Made by a program: the position numbers and the translations under genes
Shown: positions 12,264-42,349 of the stretch, one piece after another
Numbering within the stretch: the first letter of the stretch is position 1
Layout: each line of letters opens with the position of its first letter
NCBI GenBank assembly: GCA_003193925.1
Contig: PSPG01000003.1
Span: forward strand, 40,797 to 104,796
Source of the DNA: Candidatus Thalassarchaeum betae
Lineage (GTDB): Archaea > Thermoplasmatota > Poseidoniia > Poseidoniales > Thalassarchaeaceae
Reading direction: 5' to 3'
Length of the DNA: 64,000 bases
The notes under the pieces: generated by a model
Database searches by the model: none
What the model was told of the DNA's origin: nothing
What the model saw: the letters and a program-made list of their open reading frames with translations, nothing else

Positions 12264-13409
12264 ATGGTCGACTTCAGCCTGTCAGAGGAGCAGCGTATGC
12301 TCCAGGAGGCGGCGCGCGAGTTTGCTGCTGCGGAAGTCCAGCCGCACGCTGAGAAGTGGGACCGTGAGAGCACCTTCCCGCGAGAGGCGATACGCAAGGC
12401 CAACGAACTCGGTCTGCTCACCGTCAAGATTCCCGAGGAGTACGGCGGCTACGGCATGGGCTCCTTCGAGGAGGTTCTGATATGCGAGGAAATCGGATGG
12501 GGCGACCCTGGGTTCGCCACCGCATCTGGCAGCACGATGCTGGCTTCCTACCCACTCATCACAGGCGGCACTGAGGACCAGAAGCAGCGCTACCTGTCCA
12601 AGGTCGCCGATGGCTGCATCGCAGCCTACTGTGTGACGGAACCCGGTGCCGGTAGCGATGTGCAGTCGATTCGGACGCAAGCCGTCAGGGACGGTGACGA
12701 CTATGTCGTCACCGGCAGCAAGATGTGGATCACCGGAGCCGGTCACGCTGACTGGTTCTTCGTTCTGGCATACACCGACAGGGAAGCTGGGTACAGGGGA
12801 ATGAGCGGTTTCATCGTCGACGCCGACAGCGCCGGCGTCGTGCTCGGCAAGAAGGAGGAGAACATGGGCCAGCGCTGCTCCGACACGCGCGCGGTCGACT
12901 TCAACGACGTTCGCGTGCCGGCGGAGAACCTCATCGGCGGCGAGGAGAACGGCGGCTGGATGAATGCGATGAGGGCGTTCGACCTCTCGAGGCCCACGAT
13001 ATCCGCGCACGCCGTCGGCAATGCCAGGGGCGCCATGGAAGAGGCCCTGAGGTACGCCAATGAGCGCAGCACCTTCGGAAAGCCGATCTACAGGCACCAA
13101 GCGATCTCGTTCATGATCGCTGACATGGCGACCAAGATCGAAGCTGCCAGGCTTCTGACGTGGTGCGCGGCGAAGAAGGCCGACGCCGGCGAGCGCAACA
13201 CACTCGAAGCCGCCCACGCCAAGCGCTTCTCCGCCGACATGGCGATGGAGGTGACCACCGACGCGGTGCAGGTGTTCGGCGGATACGGCTACTCCGAGGA
13301 GTATCCCGTGGCCCGCCGCATGCGAGGTGCCAAGGTGGTTCAGATCTTCGAGGGTTCGAGCCAGATTCAGAGGATGATCATCGGGCGAGAGCTGCTCCGG
13401 GGCATGTGA
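12264..13409 (+). CDS. Acyl-CoA dehydrogenase
   Basis: AYCVTEPGAGSD, GSKMWIT, RSTFGKPI, QVFGGYGYSEEYPV and IFEGSSQIQR. Confidence 0.95.
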   Translation: MVDFSLSEEQRMLQEAAREFAAAEVQPHAEKWDRESTFPREAIRKANELGLLTVKIPEEYGGYGMGSFEEVLICEEIGWGDPGFATASGSTMLASYPLITGGTEDQKQRYLSKVADGCIAAYCVTEPGAGSDVQSIRTQAVRDGDDYVVTGSKMWITGAGHADWFFVLAYTDREAGYRGMSGFIVDADSAGVVLGKKEENMGQRCSDTRAVDFNDVRVPAENLIGGEENGGWMNAMRAFDLSRPTISAHAVGNARGAMEEALRYANERSTFGKPIYRHQAISFMIADMATKIEAARLLTWCAAKKADAGERNTLEAAHAKRFSADMAMEVTTDAVQVFGGYGYSEEYPVARRMRGAKVVQIFEGSSQIQRMIIGRELLRGM

Positions 13410-13419
13410 TGGTGGTGAG

Positions 13420-14001
13420 ATGGCCGAAGACGCCGTTGCTATCGGCTGCGTCGTCCTAGCGGCGGGTGGCAGCGGGCGCCTCGGGCAGCCCAAGGCGCTG
13501 ATCGAGGTGGGTCAAGGCACCCTGATCCAATGGCTGGTCGGAAGGCTCGAGAGCCACGGCCTAGCGCCAGTGGTCGTGACGCGGGGGGAGTTGCTGGAGG
13601 ATGTGGCGGCATCCGTCGCTTGCCGGGTAATCGTCAACCCTCGTCCGGAGGATGGGCGGACCGGGACCCTCCAAGTGGGCATCGCCCACCTCGATAGAGA
13701 GATCGGTCCCGGGTACGGCCTGCTGGTGGTGCCCGTAGACCGCCCGGGCTTCTCGGACTCGACTCTCCGGAGTCTCATCTCCTCGGAGCGCACCGCCTGC
13801 CCGACGAAGGACGGGAGGGGAGCGCATCCGATCGTCATTTTAGCCGCCGAAGTCGGGAGGATTCGAAGCGCTGCGCCCGACGCTCCGCTACGCGAACTGA
13901 TAGAACCTTTCCGACTAGAGGTCGAGGACCCCCACCTGCACCTCAACGTAGATCTGCCAGGAGATTTGATCGGTCTGGATGATTCGTTGGTGAATCTGTG
14001 A
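13420..14001 (+). CDS. mocA: Molybdenum cofactor nucleotidyltransferase (MocA/MobA-like)
   Basis: VVLAAGGSGRLGQPKAL, PVDRP, GAHPIV and NVDLPGD; lies near xdhC and the xanthine-oxidase-family genes; GGTGGTGA SD upstream. Confidence 0.8.
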   Translation: MAEDAVAIGCVVLAAGGSGRLGQPKALIEVGQGTLIQWLVGRLESHGLAPVVVTRGELLEDVAASVACRVIVNPRPEDGRTGTLQVGIAHLDREIGPGYGLLVVPVDRPGFSDSTLRSLISSERTACPTKDGRGAHPIVILAAEVGRIRSAAPDAPLRELIEPFRLEVEDPHLHLNVDLPGDLIGLDDSLVNL

Positions 14002-14890: not shown

Positions 14891-15760
14891 TTGCGCAACC
14901 ACAAAGGCACACTACCTGCTCTCAGGGACGTGACTCGCGCTGTCCTGACATGGGTGCTAGAGAGGCTCGAGGGCGGCGAGCGCGTCGCCATGGCCTCGGT
15001 AATCGAGGCCAGCGGCAGTGTGCCGGGCAAGCCTGGAGCGAGGCTCGCGATGACATCAGGGGGGGCAAAGTTCGGCACCGTCGGTGGAGCCGGGCTCGAG
15101 TTGAAGGTCGAGAACGCTCTGAAAGAGTTGCTCAACGGGAGCCGGGAGCCTGCCCGCAGCAAGGGGGGGAAGGTGGAGACCTTCCTGCTCTACAAGGATG
15201 CGAAGGGAGAAGAAGTGACGTCCCTTGACAGCCTATGCGGCGGCCGCGTTACCGTCGCCATGGAGGTCATCGAGCCCATGCCGCACATACTCATCGCAGG
15301 TGGCGGGCACGTCGGCCGCTCGGTCGCTATCGTATGCGACACGCTCGGCTGGTCGCACAGCGTTTTCGACGTTCGCCCCGAGTACGCCGACTCTGAGCGC
15401 TACCCCTTCGCAACCGAGTTGCACGCCAAGGCGGTCTCGGAGTTCCTGGACTCTGAGGACGCCGTCTCCCTGAGCAGATTCTCCGACGTTCTGCTGCTGG
15501 GCCACGACTGGGTCGTAGACCAGCAGATGCTGCTGGGGATGCTGAGCGAGTTCGACGGGGGCTCGCGGCCGAGGATTGGCGTCATCGGCTCGACCGTGAA
15601 GTGGAACGCTTTCCGTGAGGCCGCCGTCGAAGAGGGCATCTCACAGGCCGCAGTCGACTCGGTGAGATGCCCCATCGGACTCGACATCGGCGCGGACTCG
15701 CCGGAGGAGATCGCCGTAGCGGTCTGCGCCGAGATCATGGCTCTGGAGAAGCGGGATTAG
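14891..15760 (+). CDS. xdhC: XdhC/CoxF-family Moco-insertion chaperone
   Basis: GSVPGKPGA, GTVGGAGLE, LCGG, IAGGGHVG, GVIGS and CPIGLDIGADSPEEIAVAV. Alternative start GTG 14930. Confidence 0.92.
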   Translation: MRNHKGTLPALRDVTRAVLTWVLERLEGGERVAMASVIEASGSVPGKPGARLAMTSGGAKFGTVGGAGLELKVENALKELLNGSREPARSKGGKVETFLLYKDAKGEEVTSLDSLCGGRVTVAMEVIEPMPHILIAGGGHVGRSVAIVCDTLGWSHSVFDVRPEYADSERYPFATELHAKAVSEFLDSEDAVSLSRFSDVLLLGHDWVVDQQMLLGMLSEFDGGSRPRIGVIGSTVKWNAFREAAVEEGISQAAVDSVRCPIGLDIGADSPEEIAVAVCAEIMALEKRD

Positions 15761-17579: not shown

Positions 17580-18152
17580 ATGGTTCAGTTCCGACTCCCA
17601 ATGCTCCCGGCACCGGACGAGGTTTCGTGGTCCCCCAGCGTGAACGGAGTCAAGCTCGCGCTGCACATCGAGAGCAATGCGATTCTGCTCGACGTCCTGC
17701 GTGACCAGGCAGGCAGCCTGGGTACCAAGCGGGGCTGTGACATGGGAACCTGCGGGTGCTGCAGCGTACTCGTCGACGGGACTCCCAAACTGTCTTGCCT
17801 GATGCTGGCCCAGGAAGCCGACGGCTGTGAGATCACCACCATCGAAGGGCTCGCAGACGGACATCACCTACACCCCATCCAGCAAACCTTCACTGAGTAC
17901 GGCGGAAGCCAGTGTGGCTTCTGCACACCCGGTTTCCTAGTGGTCATCTCAGCTCTGCTGGACGAGAACCCAATCCCGTCAGACGACGAGATCAAGACGG
18001 CTATCGAGGGCAATCTGTGCAGATGCACCGGCTACCAGCAGATCGTCGACTCAGTGCGCGCTGCCTCTGACATCCTGGTCTCCGGCAGCGGCACGCCGAA
18101 TGCGACCGATGCGAAGAGCGATCCGGATCCGAGCTACGGCGGAGAGGCGTAG
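17580..18152 (+). CDS. hcrC: [2Fe-2S] small subunit of a xanthine-oxidase-family enzyme (HcrC-like)
   Basis: GTKRGCDMGTCGCCSV..SC, QCGFCTPG and GNLCRCTGY. Confidence 0.9.
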   Translation: MVQFRLPMLPAPDEVSWSPSVNGVKLALHIESNAILLDVLRDQAGSLGTKRGCDMGTCGCCSVLVDGTPKLSCLMLAQEADGCEITTIEGLADGHHLHPIQQTFTEYGGSQCGFCTPGFLVVISALLDENPIPSDDEIKTAIEGNLCRCTGYQQIVDSVRAASDILVSGSGTPNATDAKSDPDPSYGGEA

Positions 18153-18162
18153 GTGATTCAAG

Positions 18163-20922
18163 ATGGTCGATGAAAAGGACAGAGTGGTCGGATACCGGCA
18201 GCAGGGTGGCAAGCTACTGTTCCCCAAGCCCGGTTCCGGAGGCAGTCGCGAGTACAGCGAACCGCGTGATGAGGACAGCATCGCCAAGAGCAGGGGAGCA
18301 GGGGGCCACAAGCACGATGAGTTGCTGACCGGTTCTGCAATCGGCAAGGCCACACCGCTGATCGACGGACGCTGGAAGGTCACAGGGCAGGCCCAGTACG
18401 GGGACGACGTTCGCCTGCCAGGCGAGCTCGTCGGCAGGATAGTCCGCTCCAAGCATCACTACGCCAGAGTCCTGTCCATCGACGCGACAGCAGCGCTGGA
18501 GCTGCCTGGCGTTCTCGCAATCGCAACAGGAGCGGATGCCAGCGGCTCCTTCGGCGTACTGCCCGTCACCAAGGACGAGCACGCCATGGCGCGGGACAAG
18601 GTACGCCACATCGGTGACCTGGTTGCCTGTGTAGCTGCTGTCGACGAGGCGACCGCGAGGGAGGCGGTCCGTCTGATTGAGGTCGAGTACGAGGAGTTGG
18701 ACGCGGTCCACGACATGCGAAAGGGGCTGGACGACGCAGACGAGCCTATTCATGACAGAGGCAAGTACCACATCGGTTCGTCGAACATCCAGAAGAGGGT
18801 GTTTCAGGAGTTCGGCGACATCGCCGGTATGACGGAGAACGCCGTCGCCAGCCACAAGTCGGACTGGCTGTTCGCCGGCGCCAACCATGGATTCACCGAG
18901 CCGCACGCGGTCGTCGCCCACTGGGAGCCGTCGGGCCGACTGACCATGTACACCCCCCAGCAGGTCCCGCACTACGTCCACCGGGCGCTGGCCGAGGTGC
19001 TTGAGATTCCCATGCACCAGATTAACGTCTACCGCACCTTCGTCGGCGGAGGGTTCGGCGGCAAGTCCGACCCGTTCCCGCACGAGATGTGCGCCGCAAT
19101 CCTGGCGCGCAAGACCGGGCGGCCGGTGCGAATAAACTTCGACCGCGAGGAGGTCTTCTTGGTCAATCGCGGTCGGCACCCCTCTAGGATAGAGATGAAC
19201 CTGCACGCCGACTCCGAGGGCAGGCTGTGCGGCATCGAGACTGACGCCCTGATCGACGGTGGCGCCTTCGCATCGTTCGGCCACGTCACCACTTACTACA
19301 ACGGCGTCCTGCACACCGCCCCCTACGAAATCGGCGCCTTCCACTACACCGGCGCGAGGGTATGGACGAACAAGCCAGCGAGCGGGGCCATGCGTGGCCA
19401 CGGGGCGGTAAACTCGCGCTGCGCCGTGGAGGTGGGCCTGGACGATCTGGCCGGGCAGCTCGGAGTCGACCCGATCACATTCAGGCTCGCTAACCTACTG
19501 CCTCCGCACTCGGCCACGATCACCGGATTCAGGGTCACCAGCATCGGCATGCGAGAGTGCCTCGAGAGGGTCAGGGAGGCTTCGGGCTGGGACGAGAAGT
19601 TCCGCAAGTTGCCGGATGGCCACGGAATAGGCGTCGGCTGCGGCTTCTTCATCTCCGGTAGCGGTCTTCCGATCCACTGGGATCCCAACAAATTCCCCCA
19701 CGCCACCGTCCACCTCAAGGTCGACATGGACGGTGGCGTGACCGTCCACACCGGCGCGGCCGAGATAGGGCAGGGCTCCGACACCGTCATCGCCCAGTCG
19801 GTCGCAGAGGTCCTCGGCCTGCCGTTGGAGATGATCAGGATCAGGAGCATCGAGACTGACACCGCTCCGGTGGACCTAGGCTCTTACTCGTCGCGTGTCA
19901 CTTTCATGAACGCGAACGCCGCCATCACTGCAGCAATGGACATTCGGCAGAAACTGCTGGACGCGGCTGCCGAGGTCACCGGCGCGCCGGTCGAGAAACT
20001 GGTCATCGGTGACCGGCGCATATTCCGCAAGGACAACCCCGCTGTCGGGGTCTCCTACCTCGAGGCGCTGCACAAGGCGCTGGAGGACACCGGGGCTCTG
20101 GTTTCATCCGGGGCATACCGCACCCCGCCGATGGGGCGCGTTCACAAGGGGGCGGGTGCGGGAATCGCCCCGGCCTACTCATTCTCGGCCTACATCGCCG
20201 AGGTCAAGGTCGACATCGAGACCGGACAGACCGAGGTGCTCAAGGTATGGGCTGCCCATGACTGCGGCAAAGCCCTCAATCCACTGGCGGTGAAAGGGCA
20301 GATGATCGGTTCGTGCCACATGGGGCTGGGGCAGGTGCTCAGCGAGGAGATGCGCTACAGCAGGAACGGGCATCTGCTGAACCCGGACCTGCTCGATTAC
20401 AAGATCCCAACAGTCCACGAGATGCCGGAGATCGTGCCCATCATCGTCGAGTCGAACGACTCTGAAGGCCCCTTTGGGGCCAAGGAGGCTGGAGAGGGGC
20501 CGTTGCTGCCAATCCTCCCTGCGGTCTGCAACGCGGTCTACGACGCAGTCGGCATCCGCACAAGTGAGTTGCCGATAACCCCCGACCGGATGCACAGGAT
20601 GATCGAGGCGAGATGCAAAGACGAGGGTGCCTCCAGCCCCCTAGATCTGGCTTCACCCAGGCTGCAGCACTCGGACCTCGAAGGCGTGCTGGAGGCTCGT
20701 GCTGCCGAGCACGCCGAGCGAGACCGCTCCCGTAACACCGACCCCGACCCACCCGATTACAACAACGGGGCCCTGTTCGGGTTCGACCCGGAAATCCCAC
20801 CCGACGAGCAGGACGAGCGCTGGGTCGTCAGCGTGACGCCTGGCGACGAGTACGTCGACAGCCCACGTCTGGCCGGCAGCGCGTGGAAGCACACCGAGCG
20901 ACGACACGGGGGTGGTGCCTGA
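18163..20922 (+). CDS. hcrA: Molybdopterin-binding large subunit, 4-hydroxybenzoyl-CoA reductase alpha-like
   Basis: TPLIDGRWKVTG, FGVLP, QQVPHYVH, GGGFGGK, GAMRGHG, EIGQGS, DLGSYSSRVTFM and GPFGAKEAGEG resemble Thauera HcrA; AGGTGA SD upstream. Confidence 0.85.
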   Translation: MVDEKDRVVGYRQQGGKLLFPKPGSGGSREYSEPRDEDSIAKSRGAGGHKHDELLTGSAIGKATPLIDGRWKVTGQAQYGDDVRLPGELVGRIVRSKHHYARVLSIDATAALELPGVLAIATGADASGSFGVLPVTKDEHAMARDKVRHIGDLVACVAAVDEATAREAVRLIEVEYEELDAVHDMRKGLDDADEPIHDRGKYHIGSSNIQKRVFQEFGDIAGMTENAVASHKSDWLFAGANHGFTEPHAVVAHWEPSGRLTMYTPQQVPHYVHRALAEVLEIPMHQINVYRTFVGGGFGGKSDPFPHEMCAAILARKTGRPVRINFDREEVFLVNRGRHPSRIEMNLHADSEGRLCGIETDALIDGGAFASFGHVTTYYNGVLHTAPYEIGAFHYTGARVWTNKPASGAMRGHGAVNSRCAVEVGLDDLAGQLGVDPITFRLANLLPPHSATITGFRVTSIGMRECLERVREASGWDEKFRKLPDGHGIGVGCGFFISGSGLPIHWDPNKFPHATVHLKVDMDGGVTVHTGAAEIGQGSDTVIAQSVAEVLGLPLEMIRIRSIETDTAPVDLGSYSSRVTFMNANAAITAAMDIRQKLLDAAAEVTGAPVEKLVIGDRRIFRKDNPAVGVSYLEALHKALEDTGALVSSGAYRTPPMGRVHKGAGAGIAPAYSFSAYIAEVKVDIETGQTEVLKVWAAHDCGKALNPLAVKGQMIGSCHMGLGQVLSEEMRYSRNGHLLNPDLLDYKIPTVHEMPEIVPIIVESNDSEGPFGAKEAGEGPLLPILPAVCNAVYDAVGIRTSELPITPDRMHRMIEARCKDEGASSPLDLASPRLQHSDLEGVLEARAAEHAERDRSRNTDPDPPDYNNGALFGFDPEIPPDEQDERWVVSVTPGDEYVDSPRLAGSAWKHTERRHGGGA

Positions 20923-21905
20923 TGCGCATGCCGCCGTTCACGCTGCACACTCCCGACTCTCTCGACGAGGCGCTGTCCATCGCAGGCGGGCTCGCCGACT
21001 CCGCCGAGGAGTTCGACTGGGTCGCAGGCGGCACCGACCTGCTGCCCAACTACAAGTGGCACCTGAACGTCAAGCCGCACGTCATCTCCCTAGCCAGAGT
21101 CTCGGAGCTCTCGGAACTCTCGTACACTCACATCGGAGCCATGGTCCGACTGCAGGACCTCGCCGAGTCCGACGCCGTCCACCCGCTGATCGCCAGGGTG
21201 TCGAGCATGATTGCGAGCGTGATGATACGGCGCTCCGGAACCGTCGGAGGCAACATCTGCCTGGATACGCGGTGCTTCTGGTTCAACCAGTCGGAGGAAT
21301 GGCGCGAGTCCATCGAGTGGTGCTACAAGTGCGACTGCGGGAGCGGTGCCGACTGCAGGGTCATACCGAACCAGAACACGCTCTGCGTCGCCACCTACCA
21401 AGCAGACCTCGCACCGGTGCTGATGTGCCTGGGCGCGACCATCCACCTAGCCACCCCCTCGGGCAAGCGGTCGGTGCCGCTGACCGAGTTCTTTGAACTC
21501 GACGGGATCACGCGCAACGTCCTAGAGCCCGGCGAGCTGGTGACCCACCTCACCCTGCCCGAGGACATCTCGGAATGGCAGGGGGACTACCAGAGACTTC
21601 GACAGAGGCAGTCGTGGGACTTCCCGGAGGCTGGCGTCGCGGTGCTTTGGAAATCTGGCTCCAACGGAGCCCCCTCTGACCTCCGGGTCGCTACCACCGG
21701 CCTCGAGGCGATTCCGGGTTACCACTCGGAGGAGGCCGCCGCCGCCCTCGAGGGCTGGAGCGGCGTGGACAGCATCGACGAGCTGGCCGAGGCGGTCAGG
21801 AAAGCGGTCAGGCCGGTGCTAAACACCTGGTACCCTCCGTCGTACAGACGCAAGATGGTCAGAATTTTAACGAAGCGAGCGAGCAGCGGTCTCTTGGAAG
21901 TCTAG
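20922..21905 (+). CDS. hcrB: FAD subunit with [4Fe-4S] insertion, 4-hydroxybenzoyl-CoA reductase beta-like
   Basis: AGGTDLLPN, GTVGGNICLDTRCFWFNQSEEWR..C..C..C insertion and RLRQRQSWDFP. ATG 20922 overlaps the hcrA TGA. Confidence 0.88.
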   Translation: MRMPPFTLHTPDSLDEALSIAGGLADSAEEFDWVAGGTDLLPNYKWHLNVKPHVISLARVSELSELSYTHIGAMVRLQDLAESDAVHPLIARVSSMIASVMIRRSGTVGGNICLDTRCFWFNQSEEWRESIEWCYKCDCGSGADCRVIPNQNTLCVATYQADLAPVLMCLGATIHLATPSGKRSVPLTEFFELDGITRNVLEPGELVTHLTLPEDISEWQGDYQRLRQRQSWDFPEAGVAVLWKSGSNGAPSDLRVATTGLEAIPGYHSEEAAAALEGWSGVDSIDELAEAVRKAVRPVLNTWYPPSYRRKMVRILTKRASSGLLEV

Positions 21906-21906
21906 C

Positions 21907-22836
21907 ATGAAATCGAGACTGTGCATCGGCCTCGCCCTCCTGCTCCTGGCCTCCGCGACGCCAGTGCAGGGCCAGTTGGGAGCCTGGGACCTCGGGATCG
22001 AGTACCCCGGCGACAACGAGGACATGCCCTTCAACGTCGACAAGGACGGAAGGTCCACGATCCAGTTCTTCGTGAACAACGATGAGTTTCAGGACATCGA
22101 GGTCGAGTTCGAATACGACATTCCGTTCGCCGGCGAGGCGGATGGCCCCGAGTCAGAGACCATCAGCGGTGGCTCGAACGAGACCTTCACCCTCTCGGTC
22201 TCGGGAATAGACGTCTGGAACTACGCGGCAGACTCCAAGGGGGAGTTCACGATCACCGCTAACCTGGTCTCCAGAGCCGGTCTGCCCATCGGCCTGCCTG
22301 GAGAGAGCGAGGAAGCCAGCGGTTGGCTGAAGATCCCGAGAATCTACTCGATGGAGCTCGATGTCGCCGACCCTGTCGGCCCTATGAACGCGGGCTCGGA
22401 CGTCATCCTCCGAGTTACTGTGACCAACACGGGCAACGTGCAGGACAAGGTCGGTGAGGTGGAGGTCGCAGACAACTGTCCCCTGCTGACCACCGACAAC
22501 GGGCTCGACGTCCTGATGACCAGGGACATCAACGCGGGTCAGACGACCGAGGCTGATCTCAGAGCCACCGCATCAGAGAGCCATCCCCGGAGGAACTGCA
22601 AGATCGAGGTCACCGTCTCATCCAACGGAGCGATGAACTCGGGCGGCTCGGTGCTCGCCGGCGCGGAGACCACGGTCACCGTCGAGCCACCTCTCGAAGA
22701 ACCCGATGATAGCGGAGATTCCGATGATCCGGACGACCCTGTCGAGGTGATCAGCTCGAGTCTTCCGGCACCGGGTGTAGCATCGGTATTCTGTGCTCTG
22801 GCAATGGCATTAATCGCAAGCAATCGGAGGCGTTGA
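21907..22836 (+). CDS. Secreted Ig-like surface protein with PGF-CTERM-like tail (possibly choice-of-anchor T family)
   Basis: Signal peptide; acidic beta-rich domains (VTVTNTGNVQD, CARDB-like); C-terminal LPAPG + hydrophobic helix + RRR. Confidence 0.7.
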   Translation: MKSRLCIGLALLLLASATPVQGQLGAWDLGIEYPGDNEDMPFNVDKDGRSTIQFFVNNDEFQDIEVEFEYDIPFAGEADGPESETISGGSNETFTLSVSGIDVWNYAADSKGEFTITANLVSRAGLPIGLPGESEEASGWLKIPRIYSMELDVADPVGPMNAGSDVILRVTVTNTGNVQDKVGEVEVADNCPLLTTDNGLDVLMTRDINAGQTTEADLRATASESHPRRNCKIEVTVSSNGAMNSGGSVLAGAETTVTVEPPLEEPDDSGDSDDPDDPVEVISSSLPAPGVASVFCALAMALIASNRRR

Positions 22837-23016
22837 AAATCAACGTCTGCGACGCTGATAAGGCGGTGCTGAGAAGGTGCATAAAGAACACCGAACATGC
22901 TGAAATCGGCTCGTGCGCGCGAACTACGCTCAGCAACATATAACTGTCAAATGACGGTCGCGCGAGCACCGTAGGTGCTACCATGGTATTCAATTAGGTA
23001 AAAGGTAGGAATTATA

Positions 23017-24621
23017 ATGGCTGACGAGGGTAAGGAAGAAGTCCAGTTCACCACCTACGTGGTGGGCTCCATCGCAATTACAATCGTACTCCTCCTGCTG
23101 CTCCCGATGCTGTTCGTGATGGGCAAGTCCACCGCCTATTCGGCATACGAGGACCAAGAACTCTTCCAGCTCTCTGATATGCGCGACTCGCTCGCAGATC
23201 CTGAAGGCGATGGGGACGACTCTGACGACGGTTACTTCATTGCCAACACGATGTCGACCCCCATGTTGGTCAACGACTGGAAGGACCCTCATCGCACCAT
23301 GCTCCTGATCATCGCTCCGGAGAAGCCGATCGACGAAACCGAGGCAAATGCAATCTACGACTTCGTCACCGAGAAGGGCGGCAAGGTGATAGTCGCAGCC
23401 GACGGGACAAACGCGAACCGGCTGGCCACCAAGTTCGGGGTCACATACTTCGGATACCCATTGAACGACGAGAACCAGCACTGGCTGGAATACGATGACG
23501 ATGGCCCGCTCTACCCCTCGTGGCTGAATGTCTGGAGCGTCGCCGCAGTGCATGAAGACGTCAATGAGATGGGAGCCGGGGCTGCTAGGAAGGGCTGCTC
23601 CGAGTTCCAGATCGTGAACCAGAATCCTAGCTCGTGCAGAATCCCAGTCATGTTCCGCTCGCCCACGGGCATGAAGTTCGAGCCCTCATTGAGGGACACC
23701 ACCCATCCCGATGAAAGGGATGTCAAGATACTCGCCAGGGCTTCGTCGTCCGCGTTCATCGACCTCATGGGGGACGGTGACGCCAGCAACCCGCTGAACC
23801 CCGCCCCGGGCGACCTGTCCCTGATGATCCGCTTCGACTACCCCCACATCAGCGCTTACGACCGGGTTCGCTCCGGACAGGGCGGCTTGGTCGGAGGCGA
23901 CATCGGTGAGATGAGCGTAACCGGCAGCATCGTCTTCGTCTCCGACGAGGAGGCCTTCTCCAACCGATTGTGGACCCTGCCCCAAGCAGTCGCAACCGGC
24001 TTGAGCTCCTCCTGCGAGGGCGTGGTGGGAAGCTGCTGGATGCAGGAGATAAGCGACAACAACGAGTGGCAGGGCAACGAGGTCTACTACAAGCTTCTGA
24101 TCCACTCGATGATGGAGTTCGACAATCTCGAACTGTCCGGCGAGATCAGGAACGATGTGTCGCAGTTCCAAGTCGTCTTCGACGAGAGCCGCCACATCAC
24201 CGGAGTGATCTCCGCGCCGTTCGTCGAGACCATGGGCACCGTAGTCCTGCTGACTTCGAACACGTTCCTCAAGTGGCTGGTCGTGCTGAACGTCGGCCTC
24301 CTCCTCCTGGTAGCCATGATGGTGGTTCCCGAGAAGGAGAACTGGCGTCACGTGTTCGATTTGACCAGATTCAACCAGCGTCCGAACAAGCTCGACCCGA
24401 GTACCTACCGCCTGCGCGTCCAGCAGTCCCTGTTCACCAAGATCAGGGTGTACCATGAACTGACCCGTGACCAGATGGCGGCGATGCCGCCAGCAGAAAT
24501 CCAATCGATGATTGGTGACCCCCGGCTCGTAGAGCTGGCATACAGCCAGAGCCGATCCTACTCCCCCAAAGAGCTGCGCCAACTAATGCAGGCAATCAGG
24601 CGATGGGGGAGAAGTAGTTGA
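23017..24621 (+). CDS. DUF4350-like membrane-anchored protein
   Basis: N-terminal TM, FVTEKGGKVIVAAD, GSIVFVSDEEAFSN, VVFDESRH and a second TM; directly upstream of moxR. Confidence 0.75.
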   Translation: MADEGKEEVQFTTYVVGSIAITIVLLLLLPMLFVMGKSTAYSAYEDQELFQLSDMRDSLADPEGDGDDSDDGYFIANTMSTPMLVNDWKDPHRTMLLIIAPEKPIDETEANAIYDFVTEKGGKVIVAADGTNANRLATKFGVTYFGYPLNDENQHWLEYDDDGPLYPSWLNVWSVAAVHEDVNEMGAGAARKGCSEFQIVNQNPSSCRIPVMFRSPTGMKFEPSLRDTTHPDERDVKILARASSSAFIDLMGDGDASNPLNPAPGDLSLMIRFDYPHISAYDRVRSGQGGLVGGDIGEMSVTGSIVFVSDEEAFSNRLWTLPQAVATGLSSSCEGVVGSCWMQEISDNNEWQGNEVYYKLLIHSMMEFDNLELSGEIRNDVSQFQVVFDESRHITGVISAPFVETMGTVVLLTSNTFLKWLVVLNVGLLLLVAMMVVPEKENWRHVFDLTRFNQRPNKLDPSTYRLRVQQSLFTKIRVYHELTRDQMAAMPPAEIQSMIGDPRLVELAYSQSRSYSPKELRQLMQAIRRWGRSS

Positions 24622-24641
24622 AAAACAATGGAGAGATGTAA

Positions 24642-25697
24642 ATGAATGCAACACCACCAGCAAAGAAAACGGAAAAACGCCCGCCAGATGATGTCGAGAA
24701 GGGTTACGCGAAGAAGGCCGAGGCCGCGCGTGGAAAGAAGAAGATGAGCGAGAGGCTGACCGCTGTCGGCGCAATCTCTGGTGCCATCGCCACCGAAGTG
24801 CAGAAGGTCATCATCGGAAAGGCACACGTGATCGACAACGTCCTAGTGGACATCCTAGCGAACGGGAACCTGCTGTTCGAGGACTACCCCGGACTGGCCA
24901 AGACCCTGATGACGAACACGTTCGCCGATGCGCTCGGTTGCGACTTCAAGCGTGTATCATTCACGCCTGACCTGCTGCCAGCAGACATCACCGGCACGAA
25001 CATCTACGACGCCAAGAAGGGAGAGTTCACCTTCAAGCCGGGGCCTATCTTCTGCAACCTGCTGCTATCTGACGAGATCAACAGAGCGCCACCGAAGACC
25101 CAAGCAGCTCTGCTTGAGGCGATGCAGGAGCATCAAGTAACCATCGGTATCGTGACTCACAAGCTACCGGCGCCCTTCCTGACGATGGCAACGCAGAACC
25201 CGGTCGAGCAGGAGGGCACCTACCCGCTGCCTGAGGCTCAGCTCGACCGATTCATGTTCAAGATGAGCGTCGGATACCCCGACCGCGCTGACGAGGTCGA
25301 GATTCTCAACCGGCGCATCGCCCGAAAGAAGGACGCGGTCGATGTCGAGGTAATCACCGACCCGGCCCGAGTCGTCGCTATGCAGCAGGCTATCGAGGAC
25401 GTCTACGTCGACCCCGCTGTCAGACTGTACATGGTCGAGATAGTCTCCAGGACCCGTGAGGACCCACGAGTGCTCGTCGGTTCCTCGCCGAGAGGTTCGC
25501 AGGCTCTCCTCAAGACCGGTCGTGCCGCTGCAGCGATGCGCGGTCGCGACTTCGTGACACCTGACGATGTCAAGTCGATTGCAGAGCTAGCATTGGCACA
25601 CCGCCTGATCCTGAAGCCAGAGCACCAGATTAAGGGACTCGAGCCCGGGGAAGTCATCCAAGACGTCCTCCGCCAAGTCCCCGTGCCGACCGTCTGA
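24642..25697 (+). CDS. moxR: MoxR-family AAA+ ATPase
   Basis: EDYPGLAKT, FTPDLLPADITG, DEINRAPPKTQAALLEAM, ATQNPVEQEGTYPLPEAQLDRF and SPRG. Confidence 0.96.
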   Translation: MNATPPAKKTEKRPPDDVEKGYAKKAEAARGKKKMSERLTAVGAISGAIATEVQKVIIGKAHVIDNVLVDILANGNLLFEDYPGLAKTLMTNTFADALGCDFKRVSFTPDLLPADITGTNIYDAKKGEFTFKPGPIFCNLLLSDEINRAPPKTQAALLEAMQEHQVTIGIVTHKLPAPFLTMATQNPVEQEGTYPLPEAQLDRFMFKMSVGYPDRADEVEILNRRIARKKDAVDVEVITDPARVVAMQQAIEDVYVDPAVRLYMVEIVSRTREDPRVLVGSSPRGSQALLKTGRAAAAMRGRDFVTPDDVKSIAELALAHRLILKPEHQIKGLEPGEVIQDVLRQVPVPTV

Positions 25698-25736
25698 GGG
25701 CGATGCATAGGGGTTCGAGCCAGGAGGTGAAGGGGC

Positions 25737-27056
25737 GTGGCATGGAGTCGGAAGTCGGCGATGTTCGCAGCGCTGGCTGTCGCTCTCTACCTGCTCGGCC
25801 TCGTCCTGCGCAACCCCCAGTTGGTGACAGTAGCCGTGGTGCTGCTGTCCTTCCTCACCTGGGCGGCGTTCCGAACCTCGCACGCGGATGTCGCGGCATC
25901 CGGAAGGAGGATGGAGGACGGCGAATCGGACGAGGGAGTCCAATTGCACTCGGTTTCGGCCCTTCGTCGGATCTCCTCTGCCAGGATATTCGAGGATGGC
26001 GAGATTGACATCACGCTGCGAATCCAGAACCGCTCAAATCTCTCCAAGGTTCTGGAGGTTCGTGATAGAGTACCGGAGGTAATGCGCATCAAGAAGGGTG
26101 CGAACTACGTACTGATGGAACTCGGCCCCCAGCGAGAGACGGAAATCTCGTACACCATCGAGACACCCCTGAGGGGTTTCTACACCATCGGCCCGGTGTG
26201 CATTAGAATCCAGGACGCCTTCGGGCTGTTCCACAACGAACGTGAGATACACCTCTACGACGACTTCCTCGTCTTCCCCAAGATGGAGGACATCAAGGAC
26301 GCCATGATCAAGAGCAGGGTGCCGAAGATCTTCACCGGAGCCGTAAACATCCGGAATCCCGGAGAGGGCTCTAACTTCTACAATCTGCGAGACTACATCC
26401 CGGGTGACCCGATGAAGAAGGTCAACTGGCACGCCACCGCCCGCAGCGGTGGCAAGATGATGGTGAACGAGTACGAGCGCGACGCCGTCAGCGACATCAT
26501 CCTGATAGTCGACAGCAGGTCGGTCGCCGAGACCGGCCCTGTGAGCCGGAACTCCCTGGTGTTCAGCACCAGAGCCGCAGCGAGCCTGTCGCAGTACTTC
26601 CTGGCTCGCCGGGACTCTGTCGGCCTGGTCACTTACGGTGACGAGATTGTCTCCGTTGATCGCGACACCGGGAAAAAGCAGCTTTACGTCCTCCTGACCA
26701 AGCTTGCCGGTGCGATGGCCAAGGGTAACACGCCGCTGAGGGTGGTGACCAACCGGATCATGCCTCACATCAACCGAGGCAGCCCGATCATCATCATGAG
26801 TCCGCTGGAGGACGACCCCACGGTGATAGACGCCGTGCGCGACCTGAGGGCGAGGAACTTCGACGTGACCATCCTCTCATCGAGCAGCCTCGAGTTCGAA
26901 TTCGACGCGAGGCGCCTTGACCGAACCGGTTACGAGGTCCTCAAGACCGAGCGGGACATTCTGCTCAGTGAGTTGCGTGGCCTAGGTGCGAACGTGATGG
27001 ACTGGGAGCCTGACATGCTGCTCAACACCGCCTTGGCAGGGGCGAGGGGATTCTAG
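25737..27056 (+). CDS. DUF58 (vWA-like) MoxR-associated protein
   Basis: FYNLRDYIPGDPMKKVNWHATAR and MVNEYE; two N-terminal TMs; GGAGGTGA SD before the GTG. Confidence 0.93.
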   Translation: MAWSRKSAMFAALAVALYLLGLVLRNPQLVTVAVVLLSFLTWAAFRTSHADVAASGRRMEDGESDEGVQLHSVSALRRISSARIFEDGEIDITLRIQNRSNLSKVLEVRDRVPEVMRIKKGANYVLMELGPQRETEISYTIETPLRGFYTIGPVCIRIQDAFGLFHNEREIHLYDDFLVFPKMEDIKDAMIKSRVPKIFTGAVNIRNPGEGSNFYNLRDYIPGDPMKKVNWHATARSGGKMMVNEYERDAVSDIILIVDSRSVAETGPVSRNSLVFSTRAAASLSQYFLARRDSVGLVTYGDEIVSVDRDTGKKQLYVLLTKLAGAMAKGNTPLRVVTNRIMPHINRGSPIIIMSPLEDDPTVIDAVRDLRARNFDVTILSSSSLEFEFDARRLDRTGYEVLKTERDILLSELRGLGANVMDWEPDMLLNTALAGARGF

Positions 27057-37947: not shown

Positions 37948-40665
37948 TCAGTCGCGACGGGTCGCGAAAGCTGCTCCCAGAAGCACAACCACTGCCATCA
38001 GCGCGCCGAAGCCCGGTAGCATCTCAGCAGTGGCGAACGAATCGGATGTGTACTGGTCTGCCCAGGTGTCGTACAGCTCGACCTGGACGCCCGGCATGAG
38101 ATTGTCAATGACCAAAGTGTCCATGTCTGAAATCAATCCATCACCGTCGTAGTCTAGGTACTCGTAGGTGAATTCGTACTCGGCGATCGCGGGATCGACC
38201 GTAGCTGAGCCCTCGGTAAGTCCGTTCGAAGCGGCGATTGTGCAGTTCGAGATAGGGGGCTCGTTGCCCTCCTCGTCGGGCTCACCGCAATCGACAAGGA
38301 ACCTGACCTCGAAGTCCGAGATAGGAGCGTTCAGGGTCTGGCCCATGACCATCATGGTGACTCGGGAGGGCTCGTCGTCGCCTCCTTCACCATCGTCATC
38401 GTCACCATCGTCATCATCGGCACAGCAGAAGGCCCAGAAAATCTCGAACTCGTACAAATCCAGTCCGCCGCTGTCATCGTCGTCGAACATGTCAATGATG
38501 TCAGAGAGGCCATCAAAGTCTTCTTCTGACATCTCCTCGCCGTCCGTCTGATTATCGAAGTCAGCCCACTCCGAGGCAGTGAGTTGTCCGTCATCGTCAG
38601 CGTCCATCCAGTCGAAAATCTGCTCTGGATTCGCCTCCCCGGGATCGAACATGACTCCTATGCCATCGATGACGCACTGTACCTCGTTGATGTCGATCAT
38701 GTCGTTGCCATCATAGTCGCAATCATCCCACAGAGCTGCAATCGAGTCCGAGTCGAGTTCGGGGTTCGATGGGTCGGACTCCCAGAAATCCTCGAACTCC
38801 TGGAAGGACACGTAGCCGTCTTCATTCGCATCTGCCGCCTCCATGGCCTCCTCGGGAGTCGGTGCGCCATCATCGTCATCGTCTGATCCCGGCCACTCAT
38901 CTCCTCCAGAGGTCCACTCGTAGTCCTCGCTCTGTCCGAAGTCGTCAGTGCAGTGCCAGCCGTCATCCTCGTGGTCCTCGCAGTAATACCACCAAGTGTT
39001 CCATTCTGTTTCTTCAGAATACTTGCAATACCAAGCGTTCTCTTCTCCATCTGCGTCTCCTTCCCACTCGCAGTGGCCGCCCTCGTAAGATTGCCAGTAG
39101 ACGTCGTTTCCATCGTCGCCGCCATCGTCATCGCCAGAGGATTCCAACAATTGCGTAAATTCGTCGAGGTTCAGCAGGTCGTCCCCATCGATATCACCGC
39201 TGTAGAACCAGTTAGCCGTTCCCTCCTCGTCCTCGCTGGACATAGGAGGTTCCCCGTCCTGCTCGTTTTCGTTGTTGATGTAATCGATGAGTTCCTGCAG
39301 GCTCAGATAGCCGTCGTCGTCCGTGTCCATGTAGTCCATCATCTGCTCTGGATCCTCATCGCCACCATCGTCACCAAAGCCGCCCAACATGGCCCCGATG
39401 CCGTCGATGAAGCACTGCATCTCGTCGATGTCAATCAGGTCGTTGCCGTCATAGTCGCAATCATCGAACAGAGTTGCAACCTCTTCCGAATCGAGTTCGG
39501 GGTTTTCTGGATCGGATTCCCAGGCGTCCTGGAACTCCTGGTGGCTCATGTAGCCGTCACCGTCGGTGTCTACGTCCTCCATAGCCTCCTCGGGAGTCGG
39601 GATGTCGCCGCCTTCGCCGTCATCGTCAGACTCGTCGGAGCCGTCGCCACAGTCGTCCCAGCCGTCGTCGACCCAGTCCATCGGAATCTCGTTTCCGTTA
39701 TCGCAGTAGAACGTGTCATCGCCGCCATCGTCCTCAGGCATTCCCTCAATGTGGAAATTAATCGGTATCGAGGTCCTCGGCAGGGTGTCGTCGACCTCGA
39801 TGACCACGGCGTCTCCCCACATCACTGTGTAACTGATTGAAGAGCTGGCAGACCCAGGCGCGTTCCTCGACCCGTAGTCGGTTGATATCTCGTAGGACAT
39901 GAGGTCCTCGTTCTCATCGATCAGGATGACGATGGAGATGTCGTGCCCGGTGTCGTTGGTGTACTCGAGGGTCATGGTGTGGACCCCGGTCTCATCCTCG
40001 AAGGTGATTACGGGCTCCGTATCGGCAGGCATCTCGCTGGACAGGTCGCTAAGATCTCCCGTAGGCAGATCGAGGCCTATCTCTTCTCCGGTGTCGCCTG
40101 CATCAGACACACTCACCAGCGAGGATATGACATCCATGACGTCGGGGTCCGCATCCCTGGTCTGGTACGAGCCCATTCCGGCATTCTCAGCGGCCAACAT
40201 CCCACCCATGGTGTAGTGGATGTTGACGAGTTCGCCGACCTGGACCTGGATGTACTCGTAGGTCATGAAAGGCACCATCGACATGCCCATCTTCACGTAG
40301 ACCGAATCGGTATCTAAATCGGCCATCACCATCTCTTCGATGACTGTGTCCGTCTGCATGTTCATGTCGGTATTCCACTCACTCATCGTGATTGACATTG
40401 AATATCCCGCGCGCGGAATAATTTCGAGCATCTCGTCTATTTCCATCTGCTCGGTAGCGGCGGTCATGAACGCCTCCATCGAGGCTAGGTAGAAGCAGTC
40501 TCCCAACAGCTCCGCGGTGGCGTTATCGTCGTAGTTCTCGGCGTTCTCGTCCATGCAACCTAGGATATCGTCGACGATTTCCTCGATTTCAGGGCTGGAG
40601 GTGCATCCGGCCAAGGGGGTAGCGATCAACAACAGGCTAGCAAGTAGAGCATACGCTCGGGTCAT
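37948..40665 (-). CDS. Acidic surface lipoprotein with LDL-receptor-A module, 8 EF-hands and PGF-CTERM
   Basis: Lipobox LAGC; FYCDNGNEIPMDWVDDGWDDCGDGSDE; DxDxDG..E loops; C-terminal LPGFG + TM + RRD. Confidence 0.85.
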   Translation of the reverse strand: MTRAYALLASLLLIATPLAGCTSSPEIEEIVDDILGCMDENAENYDDNATAELLGDCFYLASMEAFMTAATEQMEIDEMLEIIPRAGYSMSITMSEWNTDMNMQTDTVIEEMVMADLDTDSVYVKMGMSMVPFMTYEYIQVQVGELVNIHYTMGGMLAAENAGMGSYQTRDADPDVMDVISSLVSVSDAGDTGEEIGLDLPTGDLSDLSSEMPADTEPVITFEDETGVHTMTLEYTNDTGHDISIVILIDENEDLMSYEISTDYGSRNAPGSASSSISYTVMWGDAVVIEVDDTLPRTSIPINFHIEGMPEDDGGDDTFYCDNGNEIPMDWVDDGWDDCGDGSDESDDDGEGGDIPTPEEAMEDVDTDGDGYMSHQEFQDAWESDPENPELDSEEVATLFDDCDYDGNDLIDIDEMQCFIDGIGAMLGGFGDDGGDEDPEQMMDYMDTDDDGYLSLQELIDYINNENEQDGEPPMSSEDEEGTANWFYSGDIDGDDLLNLDEFTQLLESSGDDDGGDDGNDVYWQSYEGGHCEWEGDADGEENAWYCKYSEETEWNTWWYYCEDHEDDGWHCTDDFGQSEDYEWTSGGDEWPGSDDDDDGAPTPEEAMEAADANEDGYVSFQEFEDFWESDPSNPELDSDSIAALWDDCDYDGNDMIDINEVQCVIDGIGVMFDPGEANPEQIFDWMDADDDGQLTASEWADFDNQTDGEEMSEEDFDGLSDIIDMFDDDDSGGLDLYEFEIFWAFCCADDDDGDDDDGEGGDDEPSRVTMMVMGQTLNAPISDFEVRFLVDCGEPDEEGNEPPISNCTIAASNGLTEGSATVDPAIAEYEFTYEYLDYDGDGLISDMDTLVIDNLMPGVQVELYDTWADQYTSDSFATAEMLPGFGALMAVVVLLGAAFATRRD
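38650..39600 (-). repeat. Intragenic duplication of the EF-hand block (copies about 39390-39600 and 38650-38862)
   Basis: PTPEEAME...NPELDS...DDCDYDGND.IDI.E.QC.IDGIG occurs twice, offset by 738 nt (246 codons). Confidence 0.85.
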
Positions 40666-41949: not shown

Positions 41950-42002
41950 GGCCGACGGAAGGAGCGCCTTCGGGAAAGTGTTCTGCCACTGGCGGGAGAA
42001 GA

Positions 42003-42087
42003 TGGTGCAGGGGACAGGATTCGAACCTGCGAAGCACTACGCACAGCGACCTGAACGCTGCCCCTTTGACCACTCGGGAACCCCTGC
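42003..42087 (-). tRNA. tRNA-Leu (anticodon CAG), CCA encoded
   Basis: Reverse complement GCAGGGGTTCCCGAGTGGTCAAAGGGGCAGCGTT-CAG-GTCGCTG...GTTCGAATCCTGTCCCCTGCACCA; 85 nt with long variable arm. Confidence 0.97.
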
Positions 42088-42163
42088 TCCGCCTTCCGGC
42101 GGGCGCCGCTCGTCTTCAATGCAGCGTAATCGGATATTGGCTCAGCACAACTGCCTTCGATTG

Positions 42164-42248
42164 TGGTGCAGGGGACAGGATTTGAACCTGCGAAGCACTA
42201 CGCACTGGGACCTAAACCCAGCCCCTTTGACCACTCGGGAACCCCTGC
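42164..42248 (-). tRNA. tRNA-Leu (anticodon TAG), CCA encoded
   Basis: Reverse complement GCAGGGGTTCCCGAGTGGTCAAAGGGGCTGGGTT-TAG-GTCCCAG...GTTCAAATCCTGTCCCCTGCACCA; 85 nt. Confidence 0.97.
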
Positions 42249-42349
42249 TCGTAACCGTGCGAGCGATTTTCCGTCAATAAGGCAACGCCCCCGTTATCCG
42301 CTCCCCCATAGGGTCATAACGGGCAGGTTGGGCCCGAAGTCCGGTTAAT

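Follow-up and report, generated by a model that had tools for sequence, protein, structure and literature searches.

A three-gene operon of the marine archaeon Candidatus Thalassarchaeum betae encodes a molybdenum enzyme that belongs to the xanthine oxidase family and whose closest characterised relative, as judged for every subunit by sequence comparison, is the 4-hydroxybenzoyl-CoA reductase HcrCAB (4-HBCR). The operon lies in a stretch of 64,000 nucleotides of contig PSPG01000003.1 (positions 40,797 to 104,796; assembly GCA_003193925.1), the whole of which we call the window. We propose, with about even confidence, that the enzyme is a ferredoxin-linked hydroxyaryl-CoA dehydroxylase which would feed an oxygen-dependent route of the BoxB type. 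The observations that carry this proposal are the cofactor-related features of the sequences, the placement of the alpha subunit in the family tree, the conservation of the enzyme throughout its order, a BoxB homologue in the same archaea, and the linkage of enzymes of this type to benzoyl-CoA genes in other organisms. The most informative evidence is the last, the gene context in metagenome and HcrA-clade loci. What we infer is the substrate, the direction in which the enzyme works, its electron donor and its coupling to BoxB.

Subunits, cofactor sites and family placement

The gamma, alpha and beta genes are co-directional and tightly packed (table 1). At 20922 the beta gene has an ATG that lies over the alpha stop (TGATG), and this start gives the better fit to residue 7 of the solved beta chain. 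The original prediction, made from the DNA letters, had described a gamma-alpha-beta operon with the motifs GAMRGHG and GSYSSRVTFM in alpha and a cysteine insertion in beta. The open reading frames (ORFs) and motif positions bear this out, the motifs falling at alpha residues 408-414 (nt 19384-19404) and 573-582 (nt 19879-19908) and the last cysteine of the insertion at nt 21384-21386. In Pfam searches alpha matches Ald_Xan_dh_C (PF01315, the a/b-hammerhead, 4.6e-28), MoCoBD_1 (PF02738, 4.3e-65) and MoCoBD_2 (PF20256, 3.3e-76). Gamma matches Fer2 and Fer2_2 (2.2e-31), its cysteines 53, 58, 60/61 and 73 and 112, 115, 147 and 149 corresponding to two [2Fe-2S] site patterns. In beta, FAD_binding_5 (8.5e-33) is spread over 209 residues against a profile of 170 positions, and the match to CO_deh_flav_C is weak (20.9 bits, cut-off 25.5). 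By these predicted domains the full set of a three-subunit xanthine-oxidase-family enzyme is present. No twin-arginine motif is visible at the gamma N-terminus, and the enzyme is therefore probably cytoplasmic. In the window alpha the segment AKEAGEG lines up with AKEASEG in 1rm6_A and with GE in the outgroup; a passage of PMC11760930 describes a conserved glutamate in the C-terminal part of alpha as an active-site residue in the family.

Comparison with the curated NCBIfam models places alpha at 827.5 bits on the 4-HBCR model TIGR03194 (cut-off 994.55), the next model being XdhA at 534. Beta scores 222.3 bits on TIGR03195 (cut-off 404.55; next model 109), and gamma 172.9 bits on TIGR03193 (cut-off 257.8), tied with the gamma subunit of glyceraldehyde dehydrogenase (172.6). 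Among solved structures the best chains are 1rm6_A for alpha (639 bits, next chain 265) and 1rm6_B for beta (149 bits, next chain 73). The earlier claim of a complete 4-HBCR-like enzyme is upheld, NCBIfam and the solved chains together giving 4-HBCR as the nearest characterised relative of each subunit. The PaoABC equivalog models are missed by a wide margin (PaoC 313.2 bits, cut-off 1180; PaoA 128.8, cut-off 322), and all xanthine dehydrogenase models score both below their cut-offs and below the HcrA model. NCBI records of close homologues (75-99% identity) bear the name 'molybdopterin-dependent oxidoreductase' or 'aldehyde oxidase', and JGI calls them '4-hydroxybenzoyl-CoA reductase alpha subunit'.

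The likeness to HcrCAB of Thauera aromatica (PDB 1RM6) and to the equivalogs of Aromatoleum, Sulfuritalea and alphaproteobacteria lies in the cofactor-binding motifs and in the four-cysteine insertion of beta. Aromatoleum further shares the C-A-B gene order and has an xdhC gene nearby, although 3' of hcrB there and 5' of the operon here. Alpha is 41-43.5%, beta 34-36% and gamma 52-55% identical to its HcrCAB counterpart (gamma as compared with Aromatoleum HcrC). The window enzyme differs in its separate clade, its extra alpha extensions, its aerobic host and in that no benzoyl-CoA reductase (BCR) was found beside it in the genomes searched. Both extensions are conserved across Poseidoniales: an N-terminal one of about 57 aa (nt 18163-18333) with the motifs GYRQQ ... 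PGSGG ... H.HD, and a C-terminal one of about 100 aa (nt 20614-20922) with PRL ... EH..RD ... Y.NG.LFG.DP ... LAG.AW. Neither was seen in the aligned alpha subunits of other Thermoplasmatota or in HcrA.

The four cysteines of the beta insertion (C131, C147, C158 and C168 of the 340-aa ORF) are matched in 1rm6_B by the cysteines at 122, 138, 146 and 155, as counted along the printed alignment. They are invariant in 13 of 14 aligned Thermoplasmatota beta subunits, while the further cysteines of the CYKCDC stretch show no conservation. The one beta subunit without the loop is the partner of a fused gamma-alpha form of 943 aa (L024:5983-9693, family f35), and the same fusion occurs in several bacterial representatives. 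A passage of PMC11760930 reports that the extra loop of the Thauera beta subunit binds a 4Fe-4S cluster, and one in PMC12771579 that the electrons of 4-HBCR come from reduced ferredoxin. Judging from the aligned cysteines, the insertion is probably a ferredoxin port. The original prediction had likened it to the insertion whose cluster drives reverse, ferredoxin-dependent electron flow in the 4-HBCR of anaerobic aromatic degraders. Its alignment to the [4Fe-4S] loop of 4-HBCR holds, but taken alone the insertion does not show the direction, since PaoB has a similar one.

In E. coli PaoB, annotated as the 'FAD-binding Fe-S subunit' of an aldehyde dehydrogenase, a four-cysteine insertion stands at the same place; in the alignment E. 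coli XdhB is without it. PaoABC is also a heterotrimer of the same family, and the window motif GGGFGGKSD is identical in PaoC. However, the window beta is 27% identical to PaoB and the spacing of the cysteines differs. Urolithin C dehydroxylase of Enterocloster (Ucdh/UcdCFO), which we compared by its description in a portion of PMC12771579, is unlike the window enzyme in having no [4Fe-4S] loop, NADH as donor and a non-CoA substrate.

A search with the alpha sequence among 1.84 billion representatives returned 46,770 matches at E <= 0.001, the best of them 56% identical. Among the 50 of 150 listed representatives that were scanned, only P0016 lies above the HcrA cut-off (1301.7 bits), with the fragment P0020 at 980.6. 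P0016 as query yielded 74 named loci or loci from metagenome-assembled genomes (MAGs), including six Aromatoleum species and Sulfuritalea and Thauera MAGs. The alpha tree (LG+G4, quick search, SH-aLRT support, 103 rows) comprises the window alpha, five other Poseidoniales, nine other Thermoplasmatota, 17 HcrA-clade loci, 69 representatives 700 aa or more in length, and E. coli XdhA and PaoC. In it, a superclade of 45 rows (SH-aLRT 99) unites the HcrA clade (18 rows, support 100, stem length 0.44), a Thermoplasmatota clade (17 rows, support 100, as for its six Poseidoniales rows) and four small bacterial groups. XdhA and PaoC fall far outside the superclade, with PaoC at the greatest distance of all rows. 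The original prediction had staked itself on grouping with HcrA rather than with enzymes such as PaoABC: the subunits fall outside the strict HcrA clade, yet they do not group with PaoABC.

Gene company of related enzymes

Genes of 4-HBCR are often tied to the oxygen-dependent Box route, beyond the anaerobic clusters. In an Emcibacter MAG (L088:3447-10292), hcrCAB (alpha 1169 bits) is followed by genes for BoxC (935 bits, cut-off 712) and BoxB (738 bits, cut-off 499). A boxB gene lies within the flank (<=4 kb) in nine of the 74 HcrA-clade loci (L088, L090, L094, L097-L100, L102 and L104), and one further locus has the anaerobic genes Oah and Had with an aryl-CoA ligase. The anoxic microniche of the original prediction is not needed, given that bacteria have HcrA-type genes next to boxB and boxC, which depend on oxygen. 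A SAR324 paper (PMC4782131) also notes, for bins of bacteria, both box genes and an annotation as 4-HBCR.

A second kind of company was seen in marine Rhodospirillaceae. In a marine Rhodospirillales single-cell genome, a gene pair resembling indolepyruvate:ferredoxin oxidoreductase (IOR) lies upstream of hcrCAB (alpha 1095.7 bits), with an acyl-CoA dehydrogenase gene downstream. IOR-like genes stand directly upstream of hcrCAB in 10-11 of the 74 loci (L062, L063 and about nine more marine Rhodospirillaceae), six of which carry the downstream acyl-CoA dehydrogenase. This linkage suggests a role in aromatic amino-acid breakdown.

A further set comprises 80 metagenome loci of bacterial superclade members outside the equivalog group (P0006 and P0004 types). 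Box genes occur in the flanks of five of these and Oah/Had in two. NCBIfam scans of five loci (L167, L188, L165, L160 and L156) place alpha genes that miss the cut-off within true clusters for benzoyl-CoA. L167 has an alpha gene below the cut-off (898.5 bits), then BoxC (925) and BoxB (863), and L188 a BoxD-like gene, a regulator, BoxC (922) and BoxB (879), then alpha (784.8). The alpha of L165 (889) is accompanied by two genes of the benzoate-CoA ligase family (672 and 650 bits, cut-off 375). In L160, BCR subunits B and C, Oah and Had precede alpha (884.9), and the alpha of L156 scores 833. The full order in L165 (1064-10743) is enoyl-CoA hydratase (ECH), BoxB-like protein, ligase, hcrC-like, hcrA-like, hcrB-like with the cysteine loop, and a second ligase. 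The ECH of this locus is 58% and its BoxB-like protein 50% identical to the archaeal proteins, as against only 34-40% for the canonical BoxBs of these loci. At least one organism thus has the genes of an archaeal-type ECH and BoxB-like module in physical linkage with those of an HCR-like enzyme. Among four beta subunits compared, the cysteine-loop motif pattern is matched in L165 and L160 and not in L188 and L156.

Taken together, the sub-cut-off bacterial loci (L165, L167, L182, L188, L195, L156 and L160) have alpha subunits of 785-898 bits on TIGR03194, against 827.5 for the window, and 44-47% identical to the window alpha. In these loci the hcr-like genes are linked to ligase, box or bcr genes, whereas in the archaea they are unlinked. 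We regard the TIGR03194 cut-off as conservative, because enzymes scoring like that of the window keep the company of benzoyl-CoA genes. As a side observation, this cut-off of 994.55 excludes HcrA-like proteins of 785-898 bits from genuine Box and BCR clusters, so that annotation pipelines built on it will under-call the function.

Motifs aligned to the active-site segments of other family members distinguish the HcrA clade, which has GGGFG(A/C/H)RTE, HRGR(P/Q)ET and PKDNGSYSS, as well as a derived SH..AKP, from the window alpha with GGGFGGKSD, NRGRHPS and PVDLGSYSS. GGGFGGKSD and RGRHP are retained by the archaeal clade, by other superclade members and by the outgroup, and RGHG and GSYSSRVT(F/L/I)M are superclade-wide and not specific to true HcrA. 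The Box-linked enzymes of L167, L188 and L165 carry GGGFGGKSD and HRGRHPV; at the third motif they read PVDLGSYSSRVT(L/I)M and the window PVDLGSYSSRVTFM.

Archaeal hosts, their BoxB homologue and the surroundings of the operon

The host genome, of 1.48 Mb on 23 contigs and 91.8% complete, carries a single alpha gene of this kind and belongs to the Thalassarchaeaceae (Marine Group II b), order Poseidoniales, phylum Thermoplasmatota. A match to the HcrA model was found in 100 of 101 sampled genomes of the family, covering 13 of 13 genera, and the single miss is a genome 77% complete. The same holds for all 121 genomes of the order that are at least 80% complete (three families, 21 of 21 genera). 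There is almost always one alpha gene, whole at 748-835 bits or split at contig ends, a contaminated genome having an extra fragment; none of the 121 reaches the HcrA cut-off. The enzyme belongs to the universal single-copy core gene set of the order and is neither cryptic nor accessory. Of the 'cryptic aromatic pathway' suggested originally, the aromatic branch is favoured by the BoxB homologue described below, while the cryptic part is contradicted by this distribution.

In a sample of the whole phylum, 51 of 151 genomes match the HcrA model at E <= 1e-100. High scorers beyond the order cluster in a few families (8/8 genomes of f9, with others in f21, f30, f32 and f35) and one genome of the same class; numerous families lack a match, among them f5 (0/9), f6 (0/16), f15 (0/10) and f18 (0/15). 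The cassette mocA-xdhC-gamma-alpha-beta recurs in six of nine other Thermoplasmatota loci compared, and the neighbourhoods of seven Thermoplasmatota loci outside the order gave no recurrent hint of a substrate. In one of the same class (L023:1782-13948, family f4), a gamma-alpha pair with no adjacent beta is surrounded by genes for a tungsten-type aldehyde:ferredoxin oxidoreductase, an SDR, thiolases, an acyl-CoA dehydrogenase, a methylmalonyl-CoA mutase and a family III CoA-transferase.

Family-model searches covered five genomes of the host family for BcrAD_BadFG and AMP-binding, and three of the host family with two of a sister family for all other models; a single-contig genome was in both sets. 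BcrAD_BadFG, HGD-D and AFOR_N, the family of the class II reductase BamB, were each found in 0/5 genomes, so that the search for BCR proposed originally found neither class in the five genomes per family. The absence of BCR and aryl-CoA ligase genes from the window was likewise confirmed in 45 of its 47 predicted ORFs by Pfam, the two unscanned ones being 1-1607 on the minus strand, cut by the window end, and 41870-42280 on the plus strand. Haem-copper oxidase subunit I is encoded in 5/5 genomes, in keeping with the aerobic marine archaeon that had been presumed as host. The host genome also has small ferredoxin-like ORFs.

The HCR-like enzyme is not the only molybdenum enzyme of its genome, an idea that we rejected. 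Sulfite-oxidase-type molybdoenzymes were found in 0/5 genomes and DMSO-reductase-family matches in 5/5. The two further molybdoenzymes of the host genome (L111:1367-3649 and L112:1023-3752) are an FdhF/YdeP-family oxidoreductase (868 bits, cut-off 582), with a DMSO-reductase-family match of such size in 5/5 genomes, and a DmsA/PhsA-like protein of 909 aa seen in the host family only.

The search for box genes, also proposed originally, was more rewarding: a BoxB homologue is present in 5/5 Poseidoniales genomes (168-204 bits, cut-off 499). That of the host, 380 aa long, has two ExxH motifs and scores 216.6 bits on TIGR03225 and only 42.6 on PaaA, and its best solved chain is benzoyl-CoA oxygenase component B (3per_A, E 6.4e-46). 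Its locus on contig C21 (L114:6233-9798) includes genes for an enoyl-CoA hydratase, an unknown protein of 186 aa, a 3-hydroxyacyl-CoA dehydrogenase and an aldehyde dehydrogenase, with MoaE and MoaC nearby. The BoxB-like gene is paired with that of the 186-aa protein in four of five loci compared, one of them beyond the order; Atlas matches of the latter (unk186) are archaeal hypothetical-protein clusters only. The ECH adjoining the BoxB-like gene is also the best BoxC-like match (79.6 bits, cut-off 712), and a search for an IOR equivalog found generic matches only. Across the phylum sample, 48 of 151 genomes have a BoxB-like gene, among them 27 of the 28 from the order. Beyond the order, a strong BoxB-like match accompanies the Thermoplasmatota-type alpha in 8 of 12 genomes and a weak one in 2 of 12, against a BoxB-like match in 11 of 111 genomes without such an alpha.

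Transcription of the genes labelled hcrA, yagS and boxB in Thalassarchaeaceae is supported. Public RNA-Seq data contain short contigs of gamma and alpha (152-272 nt, >=99% alike) from two libraries of two studies, which leave most of the operon uncovered and could stem from DNA carry-over. In Supplementary file 3 of PMC9723583, as far as the entries cited here go, Thalassarchaeaceae MAG genes labelled by KEGG as hcrA (K04108), yagS, xdhC and boxB (K15512) have non-zero transcript values in several coastal samples, those of boxB being higher.

The operon is preceded in the window (G+C of about 60%) by a MocA-like gene, a ZIP transporter, an XdhC-family gene and an S8 peptidase. By its family match the MocA-like protein is the probable supplier of the enzyme's molybdenum cofactor in its cytosine dinucleotide form, and the predicted role of the XdhC-family chaperone is sulfuration and insertion of the cofactor. 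The gene order gamma-alpha-beta-unknown secreted protein-DUF4350-MoxR is conserved in all three families of Poseidoniales, which may reflect function or mere synteny. The best models of the acyl-CoA dehydrogenase gene are acryloyl-CoA reductase and cyclohexane-1-carbonyl-CoA dehydrogenase, both below cut-off. Such a gene adjoins the enzyme in the window, in L023 and in the marine Rhodospirillaceae loci. We treat this adjacency as weak, because the window protein is 31-38% identical to the bacterial ones and the arrangement is not kept in the sister family.

Table 1. Coordinates, in window numbering, of the operon and of other genes named in the text
Feature	Position	Strand	Remarks
Gamma subunit	17580-18152	+	ORF, 190 aa
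Alpha subunit, molybdenum cofactor and substrate site	18163-20922	+	ORF, 919 aa; core, residues 58-817
Beta subunit, FAD and extra Fe-S loop	20922-21905	+	ATG start; alternative GTG at 20883 gives 340-aa ORF
Cysteine insertion of beta	21258-21386	+	four cysteines that line up with the [4Fe-4S] loop in 4-HBCR beta
MocA-like NTP transferase	13420-14001	+	Pfam NTP_transf_3 3.9e-24; NCBIfam MocA/YgfJ 60.5 bits, cut-off 186
XdhC-family maturation chaperone (predicted)	14891-15760	+	Pfam XdhC_CoxI, XdhC_C; NCBIfam XdhC_rel_AOR 158 bits, below cut-off
Acyl-CoA dehydrogenase, short-chain type	12264-13409		directly upstream of mocA
Unknown secreted protein, DUF4350, MoxR, DUF58	21907-27056		downstream of operon
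2-Oxoacid:acceptor oxidoreductase	61051-63866		in window
EF-hand-pair protein	37948-40665	-	large ORF, 905 aa
FG-GAP-like repeat protein	49839-56267	-	large ORF, 2142 aa

Competing readings and meaning for Marine Group II

For the proposed dehydroxylase we envisage the following course. Reduced ferredoxin would be made by the 2-oxoacid:acceptor oxidoreductase of the window, itself probably ferredoxin-linked, and its electrons would enter at the [4Fe-4S] loop of beta and reach molybdenum by way of FAD and then both [2Fe-2S] clusters. At the molybdenum a hydroxy-aryl-CoA, with 4-hydroxybenzoyl-CoA as the prime candidate, would lose its para-hydroxyl group. The aryl-CoA product would bypass a benzoyl-CoA reductase, since none was found in the genomes searched, and would instead be taken up by the BoxB-type di-iron epoxidase, likewise a core protein of these archaea, followed by enoyl-CoA hydratase and 3-hydroxyacyl-CoA dehydrogenase steps. 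Phenolic acids or units derived from tyrosine would in this way be handled by a 'hybrid' route that uses oxygen.

Several points weigh against this proposal. All three subunits stay under the curated 4-HBCR equivalog cut-offs (TIGR03193/4/5), and the archaeal clade stands apart from the HcrA equivalog clade in a superclade whose interior is an unresolved polytomy. We know of no enzyme activity for superclade members beyond the HcrA clade. The archaeal hcr-like and boxB-like genes are on different contigs and unlinked, and their co-occurrence beyond the order is weak, being positive but partial and dominated by one family. In the genomes searched, neither a BoxA nor a BoxC equivalog was found, with generic matches only. 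Nor was a benzoate-CoA-ligase-type gene, the single AMP-binding gene of the host genome being FadD-like. Poseidoniales share 18 of the 65 HcrA signature columns (those with 94% or more invariance within the HcrA clade and a frequency of no more than 15% among 53 rows of the outgroup) and other Thermoplasmatota 12. However, we have withdrawn these columns and the motif differences as evidence against an aryl-CoA substrate, and dropped the reading of a different substrate, because the Box-linked enzymes of L167, L188 and L165 share the motif variants of the window. Finally, the Thauera 4-HBCR is oxygen-sensitive according to a passage of PMC12771579.

The loop of beta would instead serve as an electron exit, to ferredoxin or another acceptor, if the enzyme were an oxidative hydroxylase or dehydrogenase of a non-CoA substrate, for instance an aldehyde, whether aromatic or aliphatic, or an N-heterocycle. 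We consider this rather unlikely. It would agree with the mostly oxidative character of the xanthine oxidase family, as worded in a passage of PMC12771579, with the four-cysteine insertion of PaoB, with the identity of GGGFGGKSD in PaoC and the outgroup consensus, with the NCBI names of close homologues, with the lack of an aryl-CoA ligase in the genomes searched and with a host that respires oxygen. Yet the models for PaoC, glyceraldehyde dehydrogenase and aldehyde oxidoreductase give alpha 313, 335 and 301 bits (PaoC 313.2) against 827.5 for HcrA. PaoC lies far outside the superclade, GGGFGGKSD is also found in the Box-linked enzymes, and all superclade members for which an informative context was obtained sit among benzoyl-CoA genes. 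Oxidation might also concern a (hetero)aromatic acyl-CoA, with ring hydroxylation para to the thioester and electrons delivered to ferredoxin. The family and context evidence for this is the same as for dehydroxylation, an aerobic host offers electron sinks, and sequence does not fix the direction of electron flow. On the other hand, the hydroxylated product would differ from the known BoxB substrate and the sole characterised member of the superclade is reductive (a passage of PMC12771579); we find this version improbable.

A classical anaerobic 4-HBCR feeding a benzoyl-CoA reductase in anoxic particle microniches could appeal to the homology with 4-HBCR and to the related sub-cut-off enzyme of L160, which adjoins BCR subunits, Oah and Had. 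It is nevertheless very improbable in archaea where the three BCR-related families are each missing from the five genomes searched, one of them a single contig, where haem-copper oxidase is present in all five, and where the gene set is universal in an order of the surface ocean. The least probable of the readings, to our mind barely credible, is a xanthine dehydrogenase for purine catabolism, as published for Thalassarchaeaceae MAGs (PMC9723583). The main text of that paper calls xdhC and yagS 'putative xanthine dehydrogenase genes' and reports high transcription of a xanthine/uracil permease, but its supplement labels the alpha gene hcrA by KEGG. The xanthine dehydrogenase models, as noted, all score below their cut-offs and below the HcrA model. 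In the HMMER alignment with the Rhodobacter capsulatus enzyme (R. capsulatus XDH, 1jro_B), Ser302 of the window alpha stands opposite Glu232 and Asn380 opposite Arg310, the position of Glu232 being fixed by a single-letter difference in the variant entry 2w55_B; we take Glu232 and Arg310 to be xanthine-binding, and the published label does not stand up to this comparison of residues.

Extending the proposed ferredoxin-linked dehydroxylase to the whole group, we tentatively suggest, at less than even confidence, that Marine Group II and several other Thermoplasmatota run the 'hybrid' route. It would combine oxygen-tolerant, ferredoxin-driven dehydroxylation with BoxB-type epoxidation and beta-oxidation-like steps, and do so without the canonical ligase, BoxA and BoxC; the alpha extensions might be adaptations, for example for partner docking or oxygen protection. 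The kind of enzyme is already known. What is new is its occurrence as an archaeal clade throughout an abundant aerobic order, with two lineage-specific alpha extensions and no benzoyl-CoA reductase in the genomes searched, and also the probable partnership with a divergent BoxB. In a literature search, we found no paper linking 4-HBCR or benzoyl-CoA metabolism to Marine Group II archaea; papers containing both benzoyl-CoA and Marine Group II terms draw no link between them, and a term search of the main text of Tully 2019 found no mention of 4-HBCR. In the portions cited here, Rinke et al. (PMC6461757) count molybdenum-cofactor synthesis as core metabolism without naming the enzyme served, and Damashek et al. 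(PMC9723583) read the same genes as xanthine dehydrogenase.

The implications reach beyond the window. If our proposal is correct, anaerobes would not be alone in having chemistry of the 4-HBCR type, and a large set of probable relatives in benzoyl-CoA clusters would escape the curated HcrA model. Marine Group II archaea have not been brought into culture, and it is from genomes that their carbon sources are deduced; the HCR-like enzyme and the BoxB homologue, both universal in the order, would give a concrete, testable hypothesis on a class of substrates. The present data hint that Marine Group II break down phenolic compounds as CoA esters. In that case, the most abundant planktonic archaea of the surface ocean would feed regularly on phenolic dissolved organic matter or on the rings of tyrosine.

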